A stretch of 62,206 nucleotides of DNA, counting the filler. It is 6 parts of 6 records of this genome, joined end to end, with 100 filler letters (N's around TTAATTAATTAA, not from the genome) between each part and the next. Parts side by side here need not be neighbours in the genome. Positions count along the whole stretch, not along the records: positions 55,625 to 62,206 come from SRR20825010_4707; 5 more parts are not named here. The stretch is one strand, 5' to 3'. Positions 2 through 62,206 of this stretch are shown piece after piece (the first letter of the stretch is position 1; each line of letters begins with the position of its first letter). A program made the position numbers and the translations under genes. The notes below the pieces were generated by a model. It did not search any database and had not been told where the DNA came from. It saw nothing but the letters and a program-made list of their open reading frames with translations.

Positions 2-1075
2 CTGCTGATCGCGGACGAGCCGACAACGGCACTCGACGTCACTGTCCAGAAGCAGGTGCTGGAATTGTTGAAAGACCTGCAACAAAAGCTGGGCATGGCC
101 ATCTTGCTGATCACCCACGACTTGTCCATCGTGCGGCGCTACGCAGACCATGTCGTGGTGATGGAGCAGGGACAACTAATTGAGGAAGCTCCGACAGCGA
201 AACTGTTTGAAGCCCCACAGCATGCCTATACCCGACGCCTGCTTGACGCAGAACCACCGGCCTCGCCGTCGGGCACCATGGTCGACAACAAGTCGCTGCT
301 GGACGTGAACAACCTTGATGTGCGCTTCGTCACCCGCAAAAGCCTGTTTGGTCGGCCTCAGTCGTGGTTTCAGGCGGTCGATGACGTCAGTTTCTCGCTC
401 AACGAAGGCGAAACCCTGGGTATCGTTGGTGAAAGCGGAAGTGGTAAGACCACGATCGGCCACGCCCTGCTGAAGCTCACTTCCAGTCGCGGCAGTATTC
501 GGCTCAGCGGCGAAGAACTCGGTCCGCTCGACCAGAAGCAGTTCCGGCCATGGCGCAGCCGTATTCAGATTGTGTTCCAAGACCCATTCGGTAGCCTCAG
601 CCCGCGGATGTCAGTCGCCGAGATCGTGCGTGAAGGCCTGGAAATACACGTACCGGCAACACCCGAAGAGCAGGACCGAAGGGTCATACAGGCGCTCACC
701 GACGTCGGGCTCGACCCACAGGCCCGTCACCGCTACCCCCATGAATTCTCCGGCGGTCAGCGCCAACGCATTGCCATCGCCCGGGCGCTGGTGCTGCAGC
801 CGGAACTCATCATTCTGGACGAGCCCACCTCTGCCCTGGACAGGACGGTTCAAAAACAGGTGATTAACCTGCTGCGGGATCTCCAGGACAAATATGGTCT
901 AAGCTATGTGTTTATCAGCCACGATCTGGCCGTGGTCCGGGCACTAAGCCACAAATTGCTGGTACTGAAGAGTGGTCGGGTCGTGGAATACGGCGATGCC
1001 GCCGGGATATTCAATACACCAAAGCACGATTACACCCGTGAACTGCTTGGGGCGGCCCTGTTCTACAGCCAATAA
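2..1075 (+). CDS. yejF: Peptide ABC transporter ATP-binding protein with duplicated ATPase domains (YejF-like), 5'-truncated
   Basis: Frame is open from base 2 ([16 protein letters not shown]). Second domain has Walker [10 protein letters not shown], signature FSGGQRQR and Walker [11 protein letters not shown]. Sits upstream of fabI as in yejABEF-fabI loci. Confidence 0.8.
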
Positions 1076-9688: not shown

Positions 9689-12268
9689 CTAATCTCTCGG
9701 TGGCGGTGGTGCCAGAACTTCACGGGCGCCATTATGCCCGGCTGCGCTGACCACACCGGATGCTTCCATGGCGTCGACCAGGTTCGCGGCCCGGTTATAG
9801 CCGATCTTGAATTTACGTTGTACGGATGAAATTGACACCCGCCTGCCCTCAGTAACAAAGGCTACTGCCTCGTCGAACAGAGCATCCCCCTCACTGTCAC
9901 CGCCGCCTTCACTCAGGTTAGGCACGCCAGGCAGGTTCTCGCCTTCGGCCCCGTTCAGTACATCGTCCACATAAACGGGCTCTCCACGTGCTTTCCAGGC
10001 GCTGACAACCCGGTGAACTTCGTCGTCGTCTACGAAGGCACCATGCACCCGTACCGGCAGTCCAGAGCCCGGGGGCAGGTAGAGCATGTCACCATGCCCC
10101 AACAACTGTTCCGCCCCACCCTGGTCCAGTACCGTGCGGGAATCGATCTTGGACGATACCTGGAAGGACATCCGCGTCGGAATGTTGGCCTTGATCAGGC
10201 CCGTGATAACGTCCACAGACGGCCGTTGCGTAGCCAGGATCAGATGAATGCCGGCGGCACGGGCTTTCTGGGCGATCCGCGCAATGAGCTCCTCGACCTT
10301 CTTGCCAACGATCATCATCATGTCGGCAAATTCGTCAATGACCACCACGATGAACGGAAGGGTTTCCAGTTCCGGGCGTTCCTGCTCGTCATCCGCCAGG
10401 TACTCATCCGGCTTCCACGTTGGGTCCAGCAGTGGCTCACCCGCGGCGGCTGCATCCTTAACCTTGCGGTTGTAGCCGGCCAGGTTGCGTACACCCAGGC
10501 TCGCCAACAGCCGATACCGGCGCTCCATTTCCGCTACACACCAACGCAGCGCGTTGGCCGCGTCTTTCATATCGGTGACCACCGGCGCCAACAGATGCGG
10601 AATACCATCATAGATGCTCAATTCAAGCATCTTGGGGTCGACCATGATGAAACGAACTTCTTCGGGAGTGGCTTTCAACAGCATGCTCAGTATCATGGCG
10701 TTGACGCCCACCGACTTGCCGGAACCGGTTGTGCCGGCCACCAGCAGGTGCGGCATCTTCGCCAGATTGGCCACCATCGGGTTACCGCCGATGTCGTTAC
10801 CCAACGCCAGGGTCAAGGCAGACGATGAGTCCTGGAACACCCGGGCGTTCAACACCTCACTGAGCCGGACCATTTCCCGCTCTTCGTTCGGTATCTCGAT
10901 ACCCACCACGGACTTGCCCGGAATCACCTCAACCACGCGAACACTGAGGACCGCCAGGGAACGGGCAAGATCCTTCGCCAGGTTGGAAATCTTGCTGACC
11001 TTGACGCCTGGCGCGGGTTTAATCTCAAACCGGGTAATAACCGGCCCGGGGTTAACCTCGACCACTTCCACGGAAACGCCGAAATCCGCGAGCTTTTCTT
11101 CCAGCAACCGCGACATGTGTTGAAGCGACTCCTCGGAATAGCCCCTTTCCTTGTGCTCCTCCGGTGGGTCCAGCAGGGTTATGGGCGGAATGGTGCTTTC
11201 AATATCTTCCAGCAACGACGCCTGTTTGCTCTTGGCGCCATTGGTGCTGCCGGCGGACTGATCATCCCGCTTGAACGGGGATATCTTCAGGGATTTCCCG
11301 GGCGGCTTGGAATTCCCCTTTGGCGACGGTTTGGCCACCGGTGTCGTGTCATCCTGGGAGCTGAAGCTTTCCAGCCGAGCGGGTTCGGCATCATCAACTG
11401 GCAGTACGCCTTCCAGGCCCGGTTCTTTTCGCTCTGGGCGTGATGCAGGTGCCTTGACCTTTTCAGCACGCGGACCCAGGCCCAACAGGCGCCGCCACCA
11501 GGAGTTGCCTGCCGCCGGGGTTTTCTGGGTTGCCACCCTGTCCCGCACCGTGGGCGGCTCCGCTGGTTTCTTCGCGGGTTCGGGTGCAGCCGGGGCTTTT
11601 GCTGCCGGTTTGGGCTTTTCCTTGTCGGAAGAGGAGAAAAGGTTTTTGATGGCATTACCGATACGGAGCGTCAGATTGCCAACCTGATCCATCAGCCAGA
11701 ACCAGGACATCCCCGTACTGACCGTCAGTGCAAACAGGAAAATCGCAATGAGCAGCAGCGTCGTGGCCGGCAGGTTAAAGAAGCGCACCATGGCCTCAGA
11801 CACCGCGGAGCCCAGCACACCGCCCGACGTTACCCCAAGACCGAACACAGAATAGAGCGACAGTAGGCTTGTCGCCGACAGCAAGATCAACAGGAAACCG
11901 CCAAAACGTAGCAGAAACAGCGGCATGTGCATGTCGATAGGATCGTTCCGGCGGCGAATCAACATCAACGCATAGCCGGCGATCATTACGGGAAACAGAA
12001 AGGCGACATGGCCGAAAAAGTCACGTAGTAGACTGGCCAACCAGGCGCCCGTTCGGCCTGCGTAATTCTGCACACTGGTGTCGTGGCCAATGCTGGCCCA
12101 ACCAGGATCCGAAGGGCTGAAGGTAACCAGCGCCATTCCCAGATAAATGCACAGTGCGATCAGGGCGATCACCGCTCCTTCCCTGGCCCCCTGGGCCAGG
12201 AAGCGACGGAACCGCTCCTGTTTTTCGGTCAACTCACCGGATTTTTTCGCTTTTACGCTCTCAGCCAT
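9689..12268 (-). CDS. ftsK: DNA translocase FtsK
   Basis: N-terminal 4-TM domain, Pro/Lys-rich linker, [32 protein letters not shown], gamma domain [17 protein letters not shown]. Confidence 0.97.
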
Positions 12269-23225: not shown

Positions 23226-23325
23226 NNNNNNNNNNNNNNNNNNNNNNNNNNNNNNNNNNNNNNNNNNNNTTAATTAATTAANNNNNNNNNNNNNNNNNNN
23301 NNNNNNNNNNNNNNNNNNNNNNNNN
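23226..23325. other. Artificial contig-joining spacer
   Basis: 44 N + TTAATTAATTAA (stops in all six frames) + 44 N. Gene content and composition change across it. Confidence 0.97.
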
Positions 23326-36485: not shown

Positions 36486-36585
36486 NNNNNNNNNNNNNNN
36501 NNNNNNNNNNNNNNNNNNNNNNNNNNNNNTTAATTAATTAANNNNNNNNNNNNNNNNNNNNNNNNNNNNNNNNNNNNNNNNNNNN
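36486..36585. other. Artificial contig-joining spacer
   Basis: 44 N + TTAATTAATTAA + 44 N. Confidence 0.97.
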
Positions 36586-40114: not shown

Positions 40115-40214
40115 NNNNNNNNNNNNNNNNNNNNNNNNNNNNNNNNNNNNNNNNNNNNTTAATTAATTAANNNNNNNNNNNNNNNNNNNNNNNNNNNNNN
40201 NNNNNNNNNNNNNN
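40115..40214. other. Artificial contig-joining spacer
   Basis: 44 N + TTAATTAATTAA + 44 N. Confidence 0.97.
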
Positions 40215-47023: not shown

Positions 47024-47123
47024 NNNNNNNNNNNNNNNNNNNNNNNNNNNNNNNNNNNNNNNNNNNNTTAATTAATTAANNNNNNNNNNNNNNNNNNNNN
47101 NNNNNNNNNNNNNNNNNNNNNNN
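47024..47123. other. Artificial contig-joining spacer
   Basis: 44 N + TTAATTAATTAA + 44 N. Confidence 0.97.
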
Positions 47124-55524: not shown

Positions 55525-55624
55525 NNNNNNNNNNNNNNNNNNNNNNNNNNNNNNNNNNNNNNNNNNNNTTAATTAATTAANNNNNNNNNNNNNNNNNNNN
55601 NNNNNNNNNNNNNNNNNNNNNNNN
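55525..55624. other. Artificial contig-joining spacer
   Basis: 44 N + TTAATTAATTAA + 44 N. Confidence 0.97.
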
Positions 55625-55711
55625 AGAGACCTGCCGAGCGGTATGTACATGATACATGTGTACAATGAAAATGTCCGCTGGATTCCGAAACGGATTATCG
55701 TCCTCCATTAG
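55625..55711 (+). CDS. C-terminal end of a T9SS type A sorting-domain protein (5'-truncated)
   Basis: Hand translation RDLPSGMYMIHVYNENVRWIPKRIIVLH* fits the LxxGxY...KxII CTD pattern. Confidence 0.65.
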   Translation, partial: RDLPSGMYMIHVYNENVRWIPKRIIVLH

Positions 55712-55736
55712 AGGATCGCTCAACAACATCAAAATG

Positions 55737-55768
55737 AAAAAGGTGAACCAATTTGGTTCACCTTTTTT
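55737..55768. terminator. Bidirectional rho-independent terminator
   Basis: AAAAAGGTGAACCAA-T-TTGGTTCACCTTTTTT is a perfect inverted repeat with A and T tails, between convergent genes. Confidence 0.88.
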
Positions 55769-55793
55769 GAAGTACTACCACGTTCTTCAGTCA

Positions 55794-56186
55794 TTACCTT
55801 AGTTCCCAGATTTTTTTCTGGAGCTTTTTGTTCTCAGCAGTAGGGTCTTCCTCTTTGGCTTTCAAAATAGCATTGTAGTAATATTTCATCGCTTGCTTGC
55901 TGTCGCCAATGGATCGCAGGTAATCTCCTTTTACTTCCAGGTTGTAAGCCGTTTCTTTGATTTCCAATGATCGGTCGATCCATTCAAGGGCTTCTCTGGT
56001 GTTCTCTTTTTTGATGAAACAAATCTCCGCGCTTTGAGCCAAAATCTCCCAGTCCGATGCATCGGCTTCTTCTACTGCTGCTTTGGCTTTTTCTACCAGT
56101 TTACTGTTTGGGTCTTCCGTTGCAAGTGCTGGAACGGATAGGATCACTGTGAGAGCCAGGATGCTTACTTTTTTTAGCATTTTCAT
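55794..56186 (-). CDS. Secreted hypothetical protein, TPR-like helices
   Basis: Signal peptide ending ALA. ALEWIDRSL...NLEVKGDYL...AMKYY resembles TPR helices. Confidence 0.65.
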   Translation of the reverse strand: MKMLKKVSILALTVILSVPALATEDPNSKLVEKAKAAVEEADASDWEILAQSAEICFIKKENTREALEWIDRSLEIKETAYNLEVKGDYLRSIGDSKQAMKYYYNAILKAKEEDPTAENKKLQKKIWELR

Positions 56187-56508
56187 AGTCATTGGGTTTT
56201 GAGTTTAATTTTATGGAATTTGAAATTCTTTTAGAAAAGACTGTGCCAAAGGATGTAAGTTGCATTGTATCAGCTTTTTACATAATTTTTGTGCTTTTCC
56301 TTTGATCGATATCCACCTAAAATTGTTCGCTTTTTCGTACAGTTAGCAGATAAACATGCAAGGGAAAAGGTTGCGTCACTTTTTACAATACCTTGAATTT
56401 CTTATTTCAACACTTCTCCGGAATTTTTTGCAATGGCTAATCTGAGTTCCCTTGATGAGAGCTCAGGTAGCGCTTTACGGTCTGTGGTTAGCTGAGAGCC
56501 ATAAAAGC

Positions 56509-57708
56509 TTAGCCAAACAAATCCAACTGTTTCGGTTTCTGTGCCCAGCCCATCACCGTTCGTCCTCCATATTTCCAGGAGTCTTCTCTCTCTTTTCGGA
56601 TTAGGTTATTCAGATTTCCCGTGGATTCAAAATTGGTTTCCAGTTGCTCGCTCGCCTTGCTTAGCGTTTGAATGGCTTTGAGTTTATCCGACTGATCTAT
56701 TTTGGCTCTTTGAATGGCAATCTTTAATACATCGATGCTTTCGTCGTAGACTTTCGTGGGTACGGGGAATGGATGTCCGTCTTTTCCTCCATGAGCAAAA
56801 GAGAATCTCGCAGGATCAGTGAAACGGGATTGTGTTCCATAAATAACTTCACTAACTAAAGTAAGCGACTGCAAGGTTCGCGGACCAAGCCCCTGAAGGA
56901 GAAGTAGGGATTCAAAGTCATGTGTGGGTAGCTCCTGAGCCAGGGCCAATACGGCCCCCAACTGCTTAATGTCCACATCTTTTTGTCTCACATCGTGATG
57001 TCGCGGCATTCGTATTTTCTGAATCTCGGTAATCATTCGCTGTGGGTTTTCAGAAGCAATATTCAGAATGCCCGACTTGGTTTCCCCTGCTTCAGGGGAC
57101 GTTAAATTGAGAATCTTGCCCTGATTTCTTCCATAAATAAAAGTATGTGGTTCTTCCGTGAAACTTTTTAGGTCGGACGAATGCCAGTGGTACCTGCGGG
57201 CGTAACCCGAAGCTCCGTCCATGCCTTGCTGCACCACAGCCCATTGTCCTTCATCACTGACAATAAATGAATGCAGGTATATCTGAAAACCATCCTGAAT
57301 AGCTGTATTATCTACTTTAGCAGAAAGCCGGCTGTTTCGAACGAGTTCATTCCCATTCAGTCCTGTTGCATTAGCGACCCGTAACAGTTCCTCCGGTGTT
57401 TTTAAAGAATGTTTGCCCCGGCCACCGCAGACATAGATGCCCAATTCCTTCGACATGGGGTTGAGTGCAGATTTCAAGGCTCCCATTACAGAGGTGGTGA
57501 TTCCCGAAGAATGCCAGTCCATACCTAGCACACAACCCAGCGACTGAAACCAGGCCGGATCACTCAACCGTTTGATTACCTCGGCTTTCCCATATTCCAT
57601 CACGATGGCTTCCATGATGGCTCCTCCAAGTTTGCTCATACGTTCTGCGAGCCATCTGGGCACTTTTCCATTGTGAAGGGGTAAGTCTGCGTATCCTGAT
57701 TTTTTCAT
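56509..57708 (-). CDS. DUF763 domain protein
   Basis: GYADLPLHNGKVPRWL, LSDPAWFQSLGCVLGMDWHSSGITT, SAKVDNTAIQDG, RFSFAHGGKDGHPFPV. HhH-like LLLQGLGPRT. Confidence 0.88.
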   Translation of the reverse strand: MKKSGYADLPLHNGKVPRWLAERMSKLGGAIMEAIVMEYGKAEVIKRLSDPAWFQSLGCVLGMDWHSSGITTSVMGALKSALNPMSKELGIYVCGGRGKHSLKTPEELLRVANATGLNGNELVRNSRLSAKVDNTAIQDGFQIYLHSFIVSDEGQWAVVQQGMDGASGYARRYHWHSSDLKSFTEEPHTFIYGRNQGKILNLTSPEAGETKSGILNIASENPQRMITEIQKIRMPRHHDVRQKDVDIKQLGAVLALAQELPTHDFESLLLLQGLGPRTLQSLTLVSEVIYGTQSRFTDPARFSFAHGGKDGHPFPVPTKVYDESIDVLKIAIQRAKIDQSDKLKAIQTLSKASEQLETNFESTGNLNNLIRKEREDSWKYGGRTVMGWAQKPKQLDLFG

Positions 57709-57747
57709 TTATGTCGGTTTTTATTATAACTATAGCGTTTCCTCACT

Positions 57748-60717
57748 TCAAACTTCAATCGTCCGATAATTCAGTCGTTTCATGTAAGTCACTTCCAGGC
57801 TGATGGCATCAAACTCCTCAACTACTTTTCCTTTCATGGCATAAATGCCCTGCCCATTGAACGGGTACTGTTTTGCTATAGGAGGGAAGTGAACCGTATC
57901 GATGAATTCCCCTTCTTCATCCAGAAAATTTCCAAAATACATATCGTCTCCTTTGGAGGTGCGCGTGCGTTTGGCTGTGATCAGGTAGCCGAATACCCGA
58001 ACCTGTTTATTGATGTGATAGGGGAGGTCGCGTGCTCTTGTGCAGTTGAGTGGTTTTTCCTTAATCAGATCAAAGGGCATTTGGAGCGGAAAACCGATTA
58101 ATTCCATTTGATCATAGATGTCCTCAATGTCGATGTGCTCCATGGGCGGGAGCTTGTAATTTTTCACGGTGGGCTCAAACAAGGAAGGTTTAATTTGGCT
58201 TTTTCCTGTGTTACCCAGCAAGAAATGCGCACGCCACAAAAGCGTTTTTTTATCAATGTTGGTAAAACGAAATGCATCGATCCGTATCAGCAAACTGAGC
58301 TGTTCCAGCGAGACACTAACACGTTTAATGTAATTATCTACTGATAGAAAAGGCCCTCTTTTTATTCGCTCGGCCACTGTTTCTATAATGGTTTGATCGG
58401 AGAGTTCTTTTATCATGCCCAATCCAAGGTAAATGGTTTTTCCTATGATGAGAGTCTGCGGTTCGCTGGTGTTGATGCAGGGCGATTCGATTTGTGCGCC
58501 ATGCATTCTGGCTTCATGGATGTAAAATTCGCGGCTGTAGAAACCACCCCCATTGTTGAGTACGGCCACCATAAACTCCAATGGATAATGTGATTTGAGA
58601 AACATGCTTTGGTAGCTCTCTATGGCATAGGAGGCTGAGTGCCCTTTCGCGAATGCGTAACCAGCAAAACTTTCGATCTGCCGCCACACATCGTGACTTA
58701 GCTCCGGAGAATATCCCTTTTTTGTGCAGTTGTGAAAAAACTTTTCTTTCACCAGTTGAAATTCATCTCGCGAACGGTACTTCCCTGACATTCCCCGTCG
58801 GAGTACATCAGCCTCGCCCAAAGTGAGCCCAGCGAAATAATGAGCCACCTTGATTACATCCTCCTGATACACCATCACCCCATAGGTGTCGGGCATGATT
58901 TTGAGGAGTACAGGATGCGCGTCTTTTCGCTTTTCTGGCAGGCGATACCTGAGAATGTACTCACGCATCATCCCTGATTTGGCCACACCGGGACGAATCA
59001 CCGAACTGGCAGCTACCAGTGTCAGGTAGTCCTCTGCCCGTAGTTTGGTCAGGAGCATGCGCATAGCCGGAGACTCTACATAGAAACAACCGATGGCTTT
59101 TGCTTCACGCAGGTTGATTTTTACCAAAGGGTCTTCCTTGAAAAGTTTGATGTCGTGAATGTCGATATTCAGCCGGTCGGGTTGATTTTCTTTGATGATG
59201 GCCAGCGCATCTTTGATTTTCCCAAGCCCTCTTTGTCCGAGAATGTCGTATTTAAAAAGCCCCACATCTTCAGCCACATGCATGTCAAAGTGGGTGATGG
59301 GAAATCCCTTTGGTGGTAAGGAAGTGGCAGTAAAGTAATGGATAGGTTTTTCAGAAATAATAATCCCCCCGGCATGTACACTGAGGTGGCTGGGGAACTC
59401 AGCAGTTTCGTCGGATTTGGTTTTAGAATCATCGGTCAGCATCCGTTCGCTGTATTGTAGTATTAATCGGGAGTGGTGATCCAGATTTTGAGAAATGTTT
59501 TTTTGTAGTTTATCGATCTCATAAGGAGGCACTCCGAAGACCTTCCCGACTTCTCTTATGATTGATTTACCCTTGAAGGTATTGTAGGTGGCGAGTAAAA
59601 CGGCGTTTTCGTATCGTTCAAAAATGTAACGCGTCACATCTTCCCGGTCTTTGGATGAAAAATCAATATCAAAATCAGGAGGGTTTTGACGGAAAAGGTT
59701 AATAAATCGCTCAAAATAAAGGTCTAGTTCGATTGGATCTACATCGGTGATACGCAGGAGGTAGGCCACAATGCTATTGGCCCCACTGCCACGCCCAACA
59801 TAGTAATAGTCTTTGCTGCGGGCATAGCTCACTATGTCCCAGCTAATCAAAAAGTAGGCGAGAAAGCCTTTTAATCGAATGGTTTGCAATTCGGTAATGA
59901 CCCTCCTGAGGATGCTAAGTGCAGGAGCGTTTCCGTAGCGATAAGGAAGTCCTTTTTTACAAAGCTCTTTTACTTTCTGATAGTCACCCGTTTCCGATCC
60001 TGTCCAGGTCTTTTGATTTTGAGGCTGGGCATCCGGGCTGAATTGGAAGTCGATCCGGCTGTTATCGATTACATATTTCAGGTTTTCGAGAGCAACCGGT
60101 AGATCTTCATAGGCATGAAGAAATGCCTTTCTACCTAAAAAGGCGTCCTCTTTTTGTCCGGTATCTGAGGGTAACAGTTTGGTCACCAATGTATTCAAAT
60201 CGATGGCACGAAGAACACAGTGAAACTCAAACTCGTCGACACTGGGGAGTGTAAAGGTGGGGCAGGCGATCAACTTGTTTTGTGGTAATTTTTTCATGAA
60301 GCGTACCCGATTTACTTCATGCGGTTTCACAGTGATGTATTCGTATTCCTCTAAGGGGCGGTCGGGGATGTTGCTTAAAGGATAGAGAATAAAACAGTCA
60401 GTTATTTTATTTATGGATGTGGGGATGAGGCTCTCATTATGCAGGTGGTGCGATAGGAAAGTATTGAGATGATAGTAGCCCTCATTGTTACGGGCAATGC
60501 CAATAAATTGCTGAACAGCTCCATTCCTGAAATCAATACCGAGTATGGGGCGGATGTCGTTTTTTTTAGCCTGACGTACAAAATCCAGATTGCCAGAAGT
60601 GCTGTTGATGTCGGTGAGGGCAAGCGTTTTGATGCGGTTTTTACGAGCCCACACCATCAACTGGCCTATGGAGTAAATGCCGTATTTGAAGCTGAAATAG
60701 GAGTGAACATTTAGCAT
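57748..60717 (-). CDS. dnaE2: DNA polymerase III alpha subunit, accessory DnaE2 type
   Basis: PHP domain LNVHSYFS and ALTDIN, GRGSGANS, catalytic PPDFDIDF and KYDILG, YAFAKGHS, C-terminal OB fold. 989 aa with no tau-binding tail. Confidence 0.9.
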   Translation of the reverse strand: MLNVHSYFSFKYGIYSIGQLMVWARKNRIKTLALTDINSTSGNLDFVRQAKKNDIRPILGIDFRNGAVQQFIGIARNNEGYYHLNTFLSHHLHNESLIPTSINKITDCFILYPLSNIPDRPLEEYEYITVKPHEVNRVRFMKKLPQNKLIACPTFTLPSVDEFEFHCVLRAIDLNTLVTKLLPSDTGQKEDAFLGRKAFLHAYEDLPVALENLKYVIDNSRIDFQFSPDAQPQNQKTWTGSETGDYQKVKELCKKGLPYRYGNAPALSILRRVITELQTIRLKGFLAYFLISWDIVSYARSKDYYYVGRGSGANSIVAYLLRITDVDPIELDLYFERFINLFRQNPPDFDIDFSSKDREDVTRYIFERYENAVLLATYNTFKGKSIIREVGKVFGVPPYEIDKLQKNISQNLDHHSRLILQYSERMLTDDSKTKSDETAEFPSHLSVHAGGIIISEKPIHYFTATSLPPKGFPITHFDMHVAEDVGLFKYDILGQRGLGKIKDALAIIKENQPDRLNIDIHDIKLFKEDPLVKINLREAKAIGCFYVESPAMRMLLTKLRAEDYLTLVAASSVIRPGVAKSGMMREYILRYRLPEKRKDAHPVLLKIMPDTYGVMVYQEDVIKVAHYFAGLTLGEADVLRRGMSGKYRSRDEFQLVKEKFFHNCTKKGYSPELSHDVWRQIESFAGYAFAKGHSASYAIESYQSMFLKSHYPLEFMVAVLNNGGGFYSREFYIHEARMHGAQIESPCINTSEPQTLIIGKTIYLGLGMIKELSDQTIIETVAERIKRGPFLSVDNYIKRVSVSLEQLSLLIRIDAFRFTNIDKKTLLWRAHFLLGNTGKSQIKPSLFEPTVKNYKLPPMEHIDIEDIYDQMELIGFPLQMPFDLIKEKPLNCTRARDLPYHINKQVRVFGYLITAKRTRTSKGDDMYFGNFLDEEGEFIDTVHFPPIAKQYPFNGQGIYAMKGKVVEEFDAISLEVTYMKRLNYRTIEV

Positions 60718-60726
60718 TGCTTAAAA

Positions 60727-60760
60727 CTAATAAAATTAGTATTAAAGCTAATAAAATTAG
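60727..60760. promoter_or_regulatory. Two tandem CTAA-N5-TTAG operators (Bacteroidota SOS-box type)
   Basis: CTAATAAAATTAG occurs at 60727-60739 and 60748-60760, 21 bp apart and 10-43 nt upstream of the dnaE2 ATG. Confidence 0.8.
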
Positions 60761-60912
60761 TAATTAATGTTTCTAAATTGACGAGTAGGTATGTGGTTTC
60801 ATCTATAATTCCCTAGCGACAAACAACTTTTGATTCTGTGACAGAAAGCGATCTGATTTTACTCATTTCACGGATAAATTGTTTGTTGCAGGTTTGCTTA
60901 AATTTTATAAAT

Positions 60913-62206
60913 ATGCAATCACTACATCGTTTTCATATCCCCGTTATGGGAATTGGTTATACGCTAGATACGCCAATCAAAATAGCGAAATATGGTATTT
61001 CCTCAGTTATTTCCATTGTTCAGGACGATGTAATCGAAAAGGCGAGGTATTACTATTCCAAGATCAATCACCTCCATTATCAAGCCATTCGAAAGGCAGA
61101 CGAGGACTACCGAAGCAAAAGGATCACAGCTTATTTGAATTTGGTCAAGCTACTGGTAGATCGAAGTTTTGACGAACTAAAAAACAATGAGGCAGAGCTG
61201 GACAAGTATGCCCGTATGCTCCCGGGGAGAGTGACTGCCGACATGCTTCGAGCCAACCCGAACCTGTTAAAAAAAGGGTCGATAGACGTAAATATCATGA
61301 CCAAACTGGATCGACAGGCTTCTAACGATGAAACAGTATTAACTGAAGCCTGTTCCGCCTTGAAGGGTTATGCTGAAAGCGATCTTCAATCTTCCCTGGT
61401 GCTTTCTGCCGGACTAAACCCCAGGTTGTTTGCCTTCATGCAGGTGTTCCCGGATTTCTACCCCGATGAATCGGGCCAAATAAAGAAGAAGATTGTGGTG
61501 AAGGTGAGCGATTTTCGTTCGGCTTTGCTACAGGGAAAAATGTTGGCTAAGAAGGGGCTTTGGGTCTCTGAATTCCGAATAGAATCGGGACTGAATTGTG
61601 GTGGACATACTTTCGCAACAGAGGGACTACTTCTTGGGCCTATATTGGAGGAGTTTAAACAAAACCGGGAAGTCATGCTTAGCGAGCAGTTGGAGTTGTG
61701 TCGGGGAGAATGGGATAAGATGGGAATCCCATCACTCACCCATCCTACCCAGCGAATATCTGTGCAGGGAGGTTTGGGCAATTCATTGGAAAGAGAGATG
61801 ATGGAAGAATATTACGGGATGGATGCCACAGGTTGGGGGAGTCCATTTCTATTGGTTCCGGAGGCTACTTCCATCGACGATGAAACATTGGATGAATTGA
61901 TTACCGCAGGAGAAAAAGACATATACAATAGCAATATTTCACCTTTGGGTGTCCGATTCAGTACGATACGAAACAACTCAGGTGAAAGGATAAAAAGGGA
62001 ACGAATTGAAGCAGGGAAACCGGGCAGCCCATGCGTGAGAAAGCACTTGGCTTTTGATAAAACCTATAACGAAGAGGGGCTCTGCACCGCTTCCATGGTG
62101 TTTCAGAAAAAGAAAATAAAAGAGCTGAAACAGCAGGCGCTTTCAACTGAGGCTTACCAAAAGGCCTATAATGCAATTACTGAAAAGGAATGCATCTGTG
62201 ATGGCC
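60913..62206 (+). CDS. Conserved Bacteroidota hypothetical protein, probable FMN TIM-barrel oxidoreductase (3'-truncated, absent from the ORF track)
   Basis: Hand translation gives 431 open codons: MQSLHRFHIPVMGIGYTLDTP...ESGLNCGGH...SVQGG...ATGWGSPFLLVPEA...PCVRKHL...GLCTAS...ECICDG. Confidence 0.8.
   Translation, partial: MQSLHRFHIPVMGIGYTLDTPIKIAKYGISSVISIVQDDVIEKARYYYSKINHLHYQAIRKADEDYRSKRITAYLNLVKLLVDRSFDELKNNEAELDKYARMLPGRVTADMLRANPNLLKKGSIDVNIMTKLDRQASNDETVLTEACSALKGYAESDLQSSLVLSAGLNPRLFAFMQVFPDFYPDESGQIKKKIVVKVSDFRSALLQGKMLAKKGLWVSEFRIESGLNCGGHTFATEGLLLGPILEEFKQNREVMLSEQLELCRGEWDKMGIPSLTHPTQRISVQGGLGNSLEREMMEEYYGMDATGWGSPFLLVPEATSIDDETLDELITAGEKDIYNSNISPLGVRFSTIRNNSGERIKRERIEAGKPGSPCVRKHLAFDKTYNEEGLCTASMVFQKKKIKELKQQALSTEAYQKAYNAITEKECICDG

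Follow-up and report, generated by a model that had tools for sequence, protein, structure and literature searches.

The stretch of DNA analysed here (the window, 62,206 nucleotides in length) carries a gene for a protein of the DUF763 family that lies directly behind a gene for a DnaE2-like DNA polymerase, and the pair is preceded by two copies of a putative SOS box. The window is a composite: contigs were joined at positions 23226-23325, 36486-36585, 40115-40214, 47024-47123, and 55525-55624, each spacer consisting of two runs of 44 Ns that flank 12 bases. G+C content ranges from 0.44 to 0.69 between the pieces, with jumps in composition. Given these sharp differences, there is no linkage between the DUF763 contig and the genes found before 55525 (MurJ-like, GlnD-like, and MutS), which probably have other organisms as their source. 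The only stretch that is linked to the DUF763 gene is 55625-62206 (G+C content about 0.44), which contains three genes on its minus strand, those for the polymerase, for the DUF763 protein, and for a TPR-like open reading frame (ORF); the principal features are collected in Table 1. When the region of the DUF763 ORF is translated from the plus strand, many stops are encountered.

Table 1. Features of the DUF763 contig, in positions of the window and, where applicable, amino acid (aa) residues of the encoded protein
Feature	Window position	Residues	Strand	Remarks
SOS box 1, CTAA-N5-TTAG palindrome, CTAATTTTATTAG on the gene strand	60727-60739			10 bp upstream of the ATG of the dnaE2-like gene
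SOS box 2, identical 13-mer	60748-60760			31 bp before the dnaE2-like gene and 21 bp away from box 1
dnaE2-like gene, DNA polymerase III alpha homologue, first gene of the operon	57748-60717	989 aa	-	assigned by Pfam domains
KPSLFE in the dnaE2-like protein	58174-58191	843-848	-	[S/D]LF[E/D/N] kept in 6 of 6 aligned orthologues; Q unconserved
DUF763 gene	56509-57708	399 aa	-	39 bp 3' of the stop codon of the dnaE2-like gene; no SOS box of its own in the window
DWHSSG, candidate active site, nearly invariant	57502-57519	64-69	-	D64, W65, S67, S68, and G69 at least 90% conserved
GGRGK, loop rich in glycine, placed between strand 91-97 and helix 98-115	57412-57426		-	G95, G96, and G98 at least 90% conserved
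YARRYHW, nearly invariant	57184-57204		-	A170, R171, R172, Y173, H174, and W175 at least 90% conserved
HhH-like element: helix 265-269, loop LLQGLGP, helix 276-290	56839-56916		-	both AlphaFold models and conservation
FESLLLLQGLGPRTL, HhH-like string	56872-56916	265-279	-	put at about 56870-56916 in the preliminary description
HGGKDG, nearly invariant	56776-56793	306-311	-	G307, G308, K309, D310, G311, and P313 at least 90% conserved
Clade-specific C-terminal extension: helix, KYGGRTVMGW hairpin, basic Pro/Lys linker	56512-56655	352-399	-	from alignments
QLDLF, candidate beta-clamp-binding pentapeptide	56515-56529	394-398	-	followed only by G and the stop codon
TPR-like ORF	55794-56192	132 aa	-	316 bp beyond the DUF763 gene
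ORF open at the contig end, divergent from the operon	60838-62205	456 aa	+	family scans

The Pfam model for DUF763 (PF05559) matched residues 5-316 of the window protein with an E-value of 2.1e-138 and a score of 461 bits, against a cut-off of 35.5. The profile was matched from end to end (positions 1-319 of 319), so that the domain is complete, and about 80 residues that follow it are outside the model. A Pfam scan of the protein at E-values of 0.01 or less returned no family besides DUF763, and NCBIfam, PADLOC, and PHROGs returned no match; by these profile comparisons DUF763 is not a phage or defence family. The closest relatives of the protein in the database, at 82-85% identity, are from Marinoscillum and Cyclobacteriaceae. 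All the motifs named in a preliminary description of this DNA were found, at or within two bases of the places given for them, namely an internal string resembling a helix-hairpin-helix (HhH), DWHSSG, HGGKDG, and the terminal QLDLFG.

The beta-clamp-binding pentapeptide has a consensus of the QL[SD]LF type (Dalrymple), and known clients of the beta sliding clamp display a short invariant peptide behind a variable linker. The preliminary description had proposed that the QLDLF ending is such a motif, and comparison with other members of the family strongly supports this reading. The comparison made use of 80 genome loci that were found with the DUF763 protein and ranked by similarity, in 79 of which the gene could be called. 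QLxLF was present in the final eight residues of 70 of these 79 orthologues, or in 73 when a relaxed pattern was applied. Among the six outside the relaxed count, two were cut by contig ends, one had QYSLF and two had QLSLW, and only one, from a metagenome-assembled genome of Spirochaetales, was truly devoid of the motif. By comparison, a strict QLxLF ending was found in just 2 of 585 neighbouring ORFs called in the same manner, one of which is a DUF763 fragment and the other of which lies behind an SOS box. In 62 of the 69 proteins measured the motif formed the C terminus itself, and it was preceded by a linker rich in lysine and proline that varied from 9 to 26 residues and was not conserved in sequence.

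Wider sampling gave a similar picture. The 121 closest database proteins include 74 with QLxLF and 118 with Q[LGMYIV]xL[FW], most of the non-QLxLF proteins among the latter ending in QGSLF or QGTLF. In an even sample of 201 genomes from the phylum, DUF763 was present in 13; all 12 of the 12 proteins fetched end in Q-L-x-L-[FW], and the thirteenth (genome G003) has QGTLF. DUF763 proteins of Acidobacteriota (loci L068, L069, L071, and L077) have the tail motif as well. Finally, residues 385-399 adopt no regular structure in a model of the full protein, in which the predicted local distance difference test (pLDDT) score is 66 for the last block. The location of the peptide at the extreme C terminus, the variable linker, the unstructured part of the model, and the conservation across orders and two phyla give strong support, at the level of sequence, to the view that it has the hallmarks of a true beta-clamp-binding motif.

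The tail is a property of part of the family only. The alignments of most family representatives end near residue 351, and among 100 near-full-length representatives (clustered at 50% identity) four have an ending that is loosely clamp-like, three by a stricter pattern, and one more has QLSLSF at its end. A tree calculated from the core region only placed the 29 tail-bearing rows, without exception, within one clade of 34 rows (Shimodaira-Hasegawa-like approximate likelihood ratio test value of 99). Meanwhile, no protein from 76 metagenome loci of tail-less relatives had a QLxLF ending, one of them ending in QQRLF. As judged from these alignments, the tail marks one clade, from Bacteroidota and Acidobacteriota, and the rest of the family is without it; it is within the tailed clade that QLxLF is conserved among DUF763 homologues, the point on which the preliminary description had proposed that its reading be checked.

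We also note further ORFs or matches at three loci. In Pedobacter terrae a second ORF (L011, 9557-9940) follows the DUF763 gene and ends in the identical EKPPINEQLKLF, and in P. kyungheensis the match (L031, 8001-9735) is about 500 bp longer than the DUF763 gene; the two cases may represent a partial tandem duplication of the 3' end of DUF763. In Chitinophaga silvisoli an ORF of 419 aa (L010, 10774-12033, minus strand) that is three genes away from DUF763 and endonuclease V ends in QLSLF and has a CTAA-N5-TTAG box just upstream, at 12046.

The two boxes before the dnaE2-like gene are the only exact copies of CTAA-N5-TTAG in the 62-kb window, in which 0.11 copies were expected, and two or more were found in none of 100 shuffled versions. 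This palindrome is one of two motifs of LexA-like repressors in Bacteroidetes, for which binding was seen in electrophoretic mobility shift assays, and tandem operator sites are common in the SOS regulon of the group, according to passages of Sanchez-Osuna et al. 2021 (PMC8565304). The window operon shares with the regulon as presented in those passages the exact palindrome, its tandem arrangement, and its placement near the start codon. From the presence of LexA-type operators at the start of the operon, repression of the two genes under normal conditions and their induction by DNA damage would be predicted.

In 44 of the 80 loci, a figure that is inflated by many Pedobacter and Mucilaginibacter loci, the 150 bp before the DUF763 start contain an exact box, as compared with 21 boxes in 1.23 Mb elsewhere in the same loci. 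The upstream boxes are located at positions -14 to -65 and, like their spacers, differ between these loci. The boxed loci include those of Cyclobacteriaceae, Flammeovirgaceae, Agaribacillus, Roseivirga, Pedobacter, Mucilaginibacter, Hufsiella, Sphingobacterium, and Filimonas, which we take to represent Cytophagales, Sphingobacteriales, and Chitinophagales. At the loci in which dnaE2 precedes DUF763, the box was found before dnaE2 (L001, L002, and L049) or before both genes (L004 and L005). Judging from these upstream sequences, SOS control of DUF763 is well supported for the lineage of the window and for the Pedobacter, Mucilaginibacter, and Sphingobacterium loci.

The exact upstream box was absent from the Chitinophaga, Chryseobacterium, Saprospiraceae, Parabacteroides, and Acidobacteriota loci among those scanned, and the second Bacteroidetes motif, GGA-N5-TCC, was present in 1 of 80 DUF763 upstream regions. 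Control by the SOS system could be limited to certain lineages; alternatively, the operator could have changed in sequence. Operators are described as diverging where the LexA-like repressor was duplicated (PMC8565304, in the passages cited). Three loci that lack the CTAA-N5-TTAG box (L103, L105, and L108) display palindromes of the TTGTA...TACAA type close to the DUF763 start, which may be diverged operators.

The gene that separates the boxes from DUF763 in the window specifies a protein with the PHP, DNA_pol3_alpha, finger, and HHH_6 domains of Pfam, and its NCBIfam scores are below the cut-offs of both the DnaE model and the model for error-prone polymerases. Full-length orthologues 44-59% identical to it are found in other Bacteroidota. 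By these sequence criteria the polymerase is a divergent protein of the DnaE2 type. Its KPSLFE sequence occupies a site that we take to be the position of the internal clamp motif of Escherichia coli DnaE (QADMF), and it may be a degenerate clamp motif.

How tightly is DUF763 tied to this polymerase? The preliminary description had suggested that DUF763 supplies the tethering role that ImuB normally plays for DnaE2, and in this explanation DUF763 would be an accessory subunit of a DnaE2 mutasome that replaces ImuB, binding DnaE2 and tethering it to the clamp by way of QLDLF. The short interval between the two window genes, behind shared SOS boxes, is what such a role would predict, and the same gene order was seen in 5 of the 80 loci. 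These five, however, are all among the closest relatives and are the only ones with a dnaE-like gene within 8 kb of DUF763, the other 75 having none. In the even sample of 201 genomes, DUF763 was found in 13 and DnaE2 of the window type in 21, with both in 7, DUF763 only in 6, DnaE2 only in 14, and neither in 174. The two co-occur above expectation (odds ratio of 14.5, Fisher p-value of 5.7e-5, uncorrected for phylogeny or genome size), but close to half of the DUF763 carriers (6 of 13) lack this type of DnaE2, two-thirds of the DnaE2 carriers (14 of 21) lack DUF763, and the genes were adjacent in none of the 7 genomes that have both.

Ten further carriers of tailed DUF763 were considered. An orthologue of the window polymerase was present elsewhere in the genome in five of them, and in four of the ten, open frames of 1065-1089 aa encode other paralogues of DnaE. 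In G009 and G012 the orthologue may be about 8 kb from DUF763, slightly beyond the flank that was covered and on the opposite strand, if the contigs are the same. Parabacteroides (G011) has a DUF763 protein that ends in QLSLW even though its one match to the polymerase query, a frame of 1275 aa, is read as the replicative DnaE. Also at variance with a mutasome subunit, the DUF763 core is highly conserved and is present in archaea too, which are not known to have a DnaE-type polymerase.

A candidate for the tether of DnaE2 is, moreover, already at hand in the relatives. All five relatives examined possess a Y-family polymerase (PolY) that combines the IMS and IMS_C domains with a DLDxFF start and, about 55 residues before its end, an internal QINLF, so that an active-looking PolY with a clamp motif is present beside dnaE2 or 5.5-8.4 kb upstream of it in five of five; the DnaE2-like protein itself retains [S/D]LF at the place of the internal clamp motif. 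In G003 PolY is directly upstream of dnaE2 and the order is box, PolY, DUF559, dnaE2 (L081), whereas in the four genomes with the dnaE2-DUF763 pair (G002, G004, G005, and G006; L082-L085) it is 5.5-8.4 kb upstream, beside a gene for a LexA-like protein of the S24 peptidase type. Such LexA-like genes were found in all five relatives as open frames of 258-278 aa, and four of them adjoin the PolY gene. In every one of the five regions, PolY and dnaE2 each have a box upstream.

The absence of a recognisable ImuB might be taken to favour the replacement of ImuB by DUF763. ImuB scores weakly on the IMS model, and all 13 IMS matches in the five relatives (two or three per genome) reached at least 147 bits; no ImuB-like, degenerate IMS was found among these, with only the copy on the dnaE2 side examined in each genome (IMS and IMS_C domains, DxD start) and imuA not searched for. 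However, a Bacteroidetes PolY2-DnaE2 system that lacks ImuA and ImuB-C is described in passages of Timinskas and Venclovas (2019, PMC6511836), and the arrangement of PolY and dnaE2 in the relatives fits that system. The window polymerase is of the same DnaE2 type as that of this putative mutasome, and PolY in the relatives is beside it (G003) or a few kilobases upstream; the difference is that DUF763 is appended to dnaE2, in one lineage only, which resembles Cyclobacteriaceae. DUF763 is not named in PMC6511836, as judged from full-text searches for the family, which did not return that paper. DUF763 resembles ImuB in being a protein with a clamp motif that is encoded beside a DnaE2-type polymerase under apparent SOS control, but it differs in having no Y-family (IMS) domain, in showing no obligate co-occurrence with dnaE2, and in the catalytic look of its core, ImuB being an adaptor without catalytic activity (PMC6511836, in the passages cited).

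Given that a clamp tether for DnaE2 is available without DUF763 and that DUF763 is widespread in the absence of DnaE2, the adjacency of the two genes is better accounted for by common regulation than by a function like that of ImuB. In our reading the link between DUF763 and DnaE2 is probably one of shared regulation, plus shared transcription in the lineage of the window, and there is no obligate partnership. The proposal of an ImuB substitute, with dnaE2 adjacent at 5 of 80 loci, each gene often found without the other, and PolY close by, is thus disfavoured, and we consider a mutasome subunit an unlikely identity for DUF763.

Certain other features of these regions are worth recording. In L082-L085 the genes form what may be called an SOS island, in which the LexA-like gene is divergent from PolY and 5.5-8.4 kb of unrelated genes intervene before dnaE2-DUF763, each unit being preceded by a box. 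Small genes for proteins resembling 23S_rRNA_IVP/bAvd (118-147 aa) and for DUF559 proteins (142-144 aa) lie between SOS boxes and polymerase genes in several relatives (L083, 1055-1923 and 8319-8675; L085, 1076-1477; L081, 5649-6083). In the window, the 456-aa ORF that is divergent from the operon had no match in Pfam, NCBIfam, PADLOC, or PHROGs.

What might DUF763 itself do? Among 113 sequences of the family, about 50 positions of the core (approximately 350 residues) are at least 90% conserved, many of them polar. They include DWHSSG, GG.GK at a turn from strand to helix, S126, D133, QD, H146, QQG, ARRYHW, DP, and HGGKDG.P. The presence of many invariant polar residues argues for the core being an enzyme rather than a scaffold. 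The glycine-rich GGRGK (GGxGK) sequence is a candidate phosphate-binding loop, its counterparts G93, G94, and K95 (in the numbering of P0148) being invariant across 63 tail-less members.

The internal string that the preliminary description had read as an HhH conforms to the pattern h-x-x-h-x-G-h-G-x-x-x-A/T-x-x-h of this element, which LLLLQGLGPRTLQSL fits. The pattern h-x-G-h-G-P-x-T is found at this site throughout the family, and G273, G275, and L282 are conserved in 104, 109, and 108 of the 113 members, tail-less members included. An AlphaFold2 model of the full protein, built on the 113-row alignment (pLDDT of 81.9; predicted template modelling score of 0.83), agrees with a model of residues 240-399 alone in predicting a short helix (265-269), a glycine-rich loop (270-275), and a longer helix (276-290), and the element has a pLDDT of about 85 in the domain-only model. 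The pattern, the conservation, and the predicted secondary structure thus stand in favour of the earlier reading, but profile and fold searches lent it no support. No Pfam HhH model was recovered at E-values of 10 or less for residues 240-399 or 255-330, in searches whose HMMER filters drop most weak matches. The model of residues 240-399 gave a best Foldseek E-value of 2.3 and a best VIA Z-score of 5.1, the latter on a helical hairpin rather than on the HhH; fold searches are uninformative here because the element is too small. On balance, the sequence and the models make an HhH in DUF763 likely.

The full model, when compared with known structures, likewise revealed no relative (best Foldseek E-value of 0.2, best VIA Z-score of 4.6). 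A search of PDB by sequence returned only spurious matches to repeats (E-values of 0.006-0.012), and ESM Atlas yielded no usable match once DUF763 clusters were left out. In the searches made with the predicted structure and sequence, then, DUF763 is without a detectable structural relative.

Short motifs recur randomly, and with no Pfam match for the HhH it could be argued that both this string and the QLDLF ending are chance resemblances without function. We regard this as highly improbable, inasmuch as the tail motif has been kept across two phyla even though the linker varies in length and sequence, the background frequency of the ending is as low as that given above for neighbouring ORFs, and the two glycines of the HhH-like loop are retained almost throughout the family.

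The family extends well beyond the tailed clade. A search recovered 3317 clusters at 50% identity (E-values of 0.001 or less), and the family is found in archaea, as indicated by a control match from Sulfolobus and by the inclusion of archaea in a species list for DUF763 (PMC554113, in the part containing the list). Longer, fused forms were considered and set aside: there were seven such matches, each in a single-member cluster and with unrelated partners (CysRS, metallo-beta-lactamase, transposase, subtilase, and DHH), and they are probable artefacts of gene calling. Most members are stand-alone genes without a conserved context. In the 80 genome loci there was no conserved DUF763 neighbourhood beyond synteny at the level of the genus, with endonuclease V found as a neighbour in 4, thymidylate kinase in 6, DUF4268 in 11, and an SF1 helicase in 3.

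A survey of 129 immediate neighbours in the 76 metagenome loci of tail-less relatives bears on whether the core acts on DNA or RNA. Genes of RNA metabolism were represented by TRM5/TYW2, MiaA, RsmB/F (two loci), SpoU, a TrmB-like methyltransferase, a CCA-type nucleotidyltransferase, AlaRS, and three radical-SAM genes. These tRNA/rRNA-modification and translation genes, the occurrence of the family in both archaea and bacteria, and the stand-alone character of most members would suit a housekeeping RNA enzyme, acting for example in the processing or modification of tRNA or rRNA, for which the tail and the boxes are secondary or serve another partner. The same survey, however, yielded PolX, whose gene shares 4 bp with the stop end of DUF763 (L175, 1294-3021); a C-terminal fragment of RarA, which terminates 3 bp short of DUF763 (L160, 3-473); and an HhH-GPD glycosylase, located 40 bp downstream (L122, 7189-7800). 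Each of these three is a single case in 76 loci. Lhr was a neighbour at two loci, and RadC and DNA methylases were represented as well. Moreover, a clamp motif and LexA boxes make sense only with a DNA-associated role in the tailed clade. We therefore assign the RNA enzyme a low probability, and a role in DNA repair for the core is credible, with the clamp motif and the operators tipping the tailed clade towards DNA.

We favour, as the explanation with a somewhat better than even chance of being correct, that DUF763 is an SOS-induced, clamp-tethered DNA-damage factor with a novel fold, a view grounded in sequence comparison. In this model, the dnaE2-like gene and DUF763 would form a two-gene operon whose start is covered by two LexA-type operators of the Bacteroidetes kind. 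The core of about 350 residues, with DWHSSG, GGxGK, YARRYHW, and HGGKDG, would be the enzyme, and the HhH-like element would contact the DNA backbone. QLxLF, at the end of the flexible Lys/Pro linker, would enter the hydrophobic pocket on the beta sliding clamp, and, as its conservation suggests, the tail would hold DUF763 at clamp-loaded primer ends or stalled forks.

Several observations weigh against this model. In the even sample of the phylum an exact upstream box was found in 2 of the 13 carriers only (G003 and G032), with two further carriers having copies with one mismatch; the inflation of the count for the similarity-ranked loci, noted above, is of a piece with this. The family outside the tailed clade is without the tail, and the HhH-like element has no profile match. 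Finally, the neighbours of tail-less members are tRNA/rRNA-modification genes as often as they are DNA-repair genes, and given this about equal frequency the activity of the core need not be exerted on DNA. A more far-reaching version of the SOS-factor model, which we advance tentatively and with clearly less confidence than the model itself, would have DUF763 be an unrecognised enzyme of DNA repair or damage tolerance, with a new fold, that in Bacteroidota and Acidobacteriota has been wired into the SOS response and the sliding clamp; it would process lesions or ends at clamp-loaded sites, a step not assigned to any known family, and members without the tail, archaeal and bacterial, would perform the same chemistry without the clamp.

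Clamp motifs of E. coli include QLGLF in Pol II, QLNLF in UmuC, and QLVLGL in Pol IV. DUF763 is like the SOS-controlled clients of the clamp in having a C-terminal Q-L-x-L-F behind a flexible linker, a LexA-type operator, and a gene beside translesion polymerase genes. It differs in that its body is neither a polymerase nor a known client, with DUF763 as its only Pfam family and no match to a fold in PDB, so that the likeness is one of sequence alone. A search of the full-text literature found no functional study of DUF763, the sole mention being an entry in a list from 2005, and the family is absent from the main text and one supplementary file of PMC8565304. The figures of that study are described as showing only genes that are regulated in at least 15% of species; for comparison, DUF763 was found in 13 of 201 genomes. 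Within the literature searched, the clamp-like tail of DUF763 and its apparent control by the SOS system have, in our view, not been described before.

The findings correct the attractive but unsupported idea of DUF763 as a stand-in for ImuB. The conserved clamp-docking tail and the LexA-type operators provide a concrete and testable link between DUF763 and the DNA-damage response, and tailed, boxed DUF763 genes are available in the culturable soil genera Pedobacter and Mucilaginibacter. If the link is true, DUF763 would be added both to the SOS regulon of Bacteroidota and to the clients of the beta clamp.

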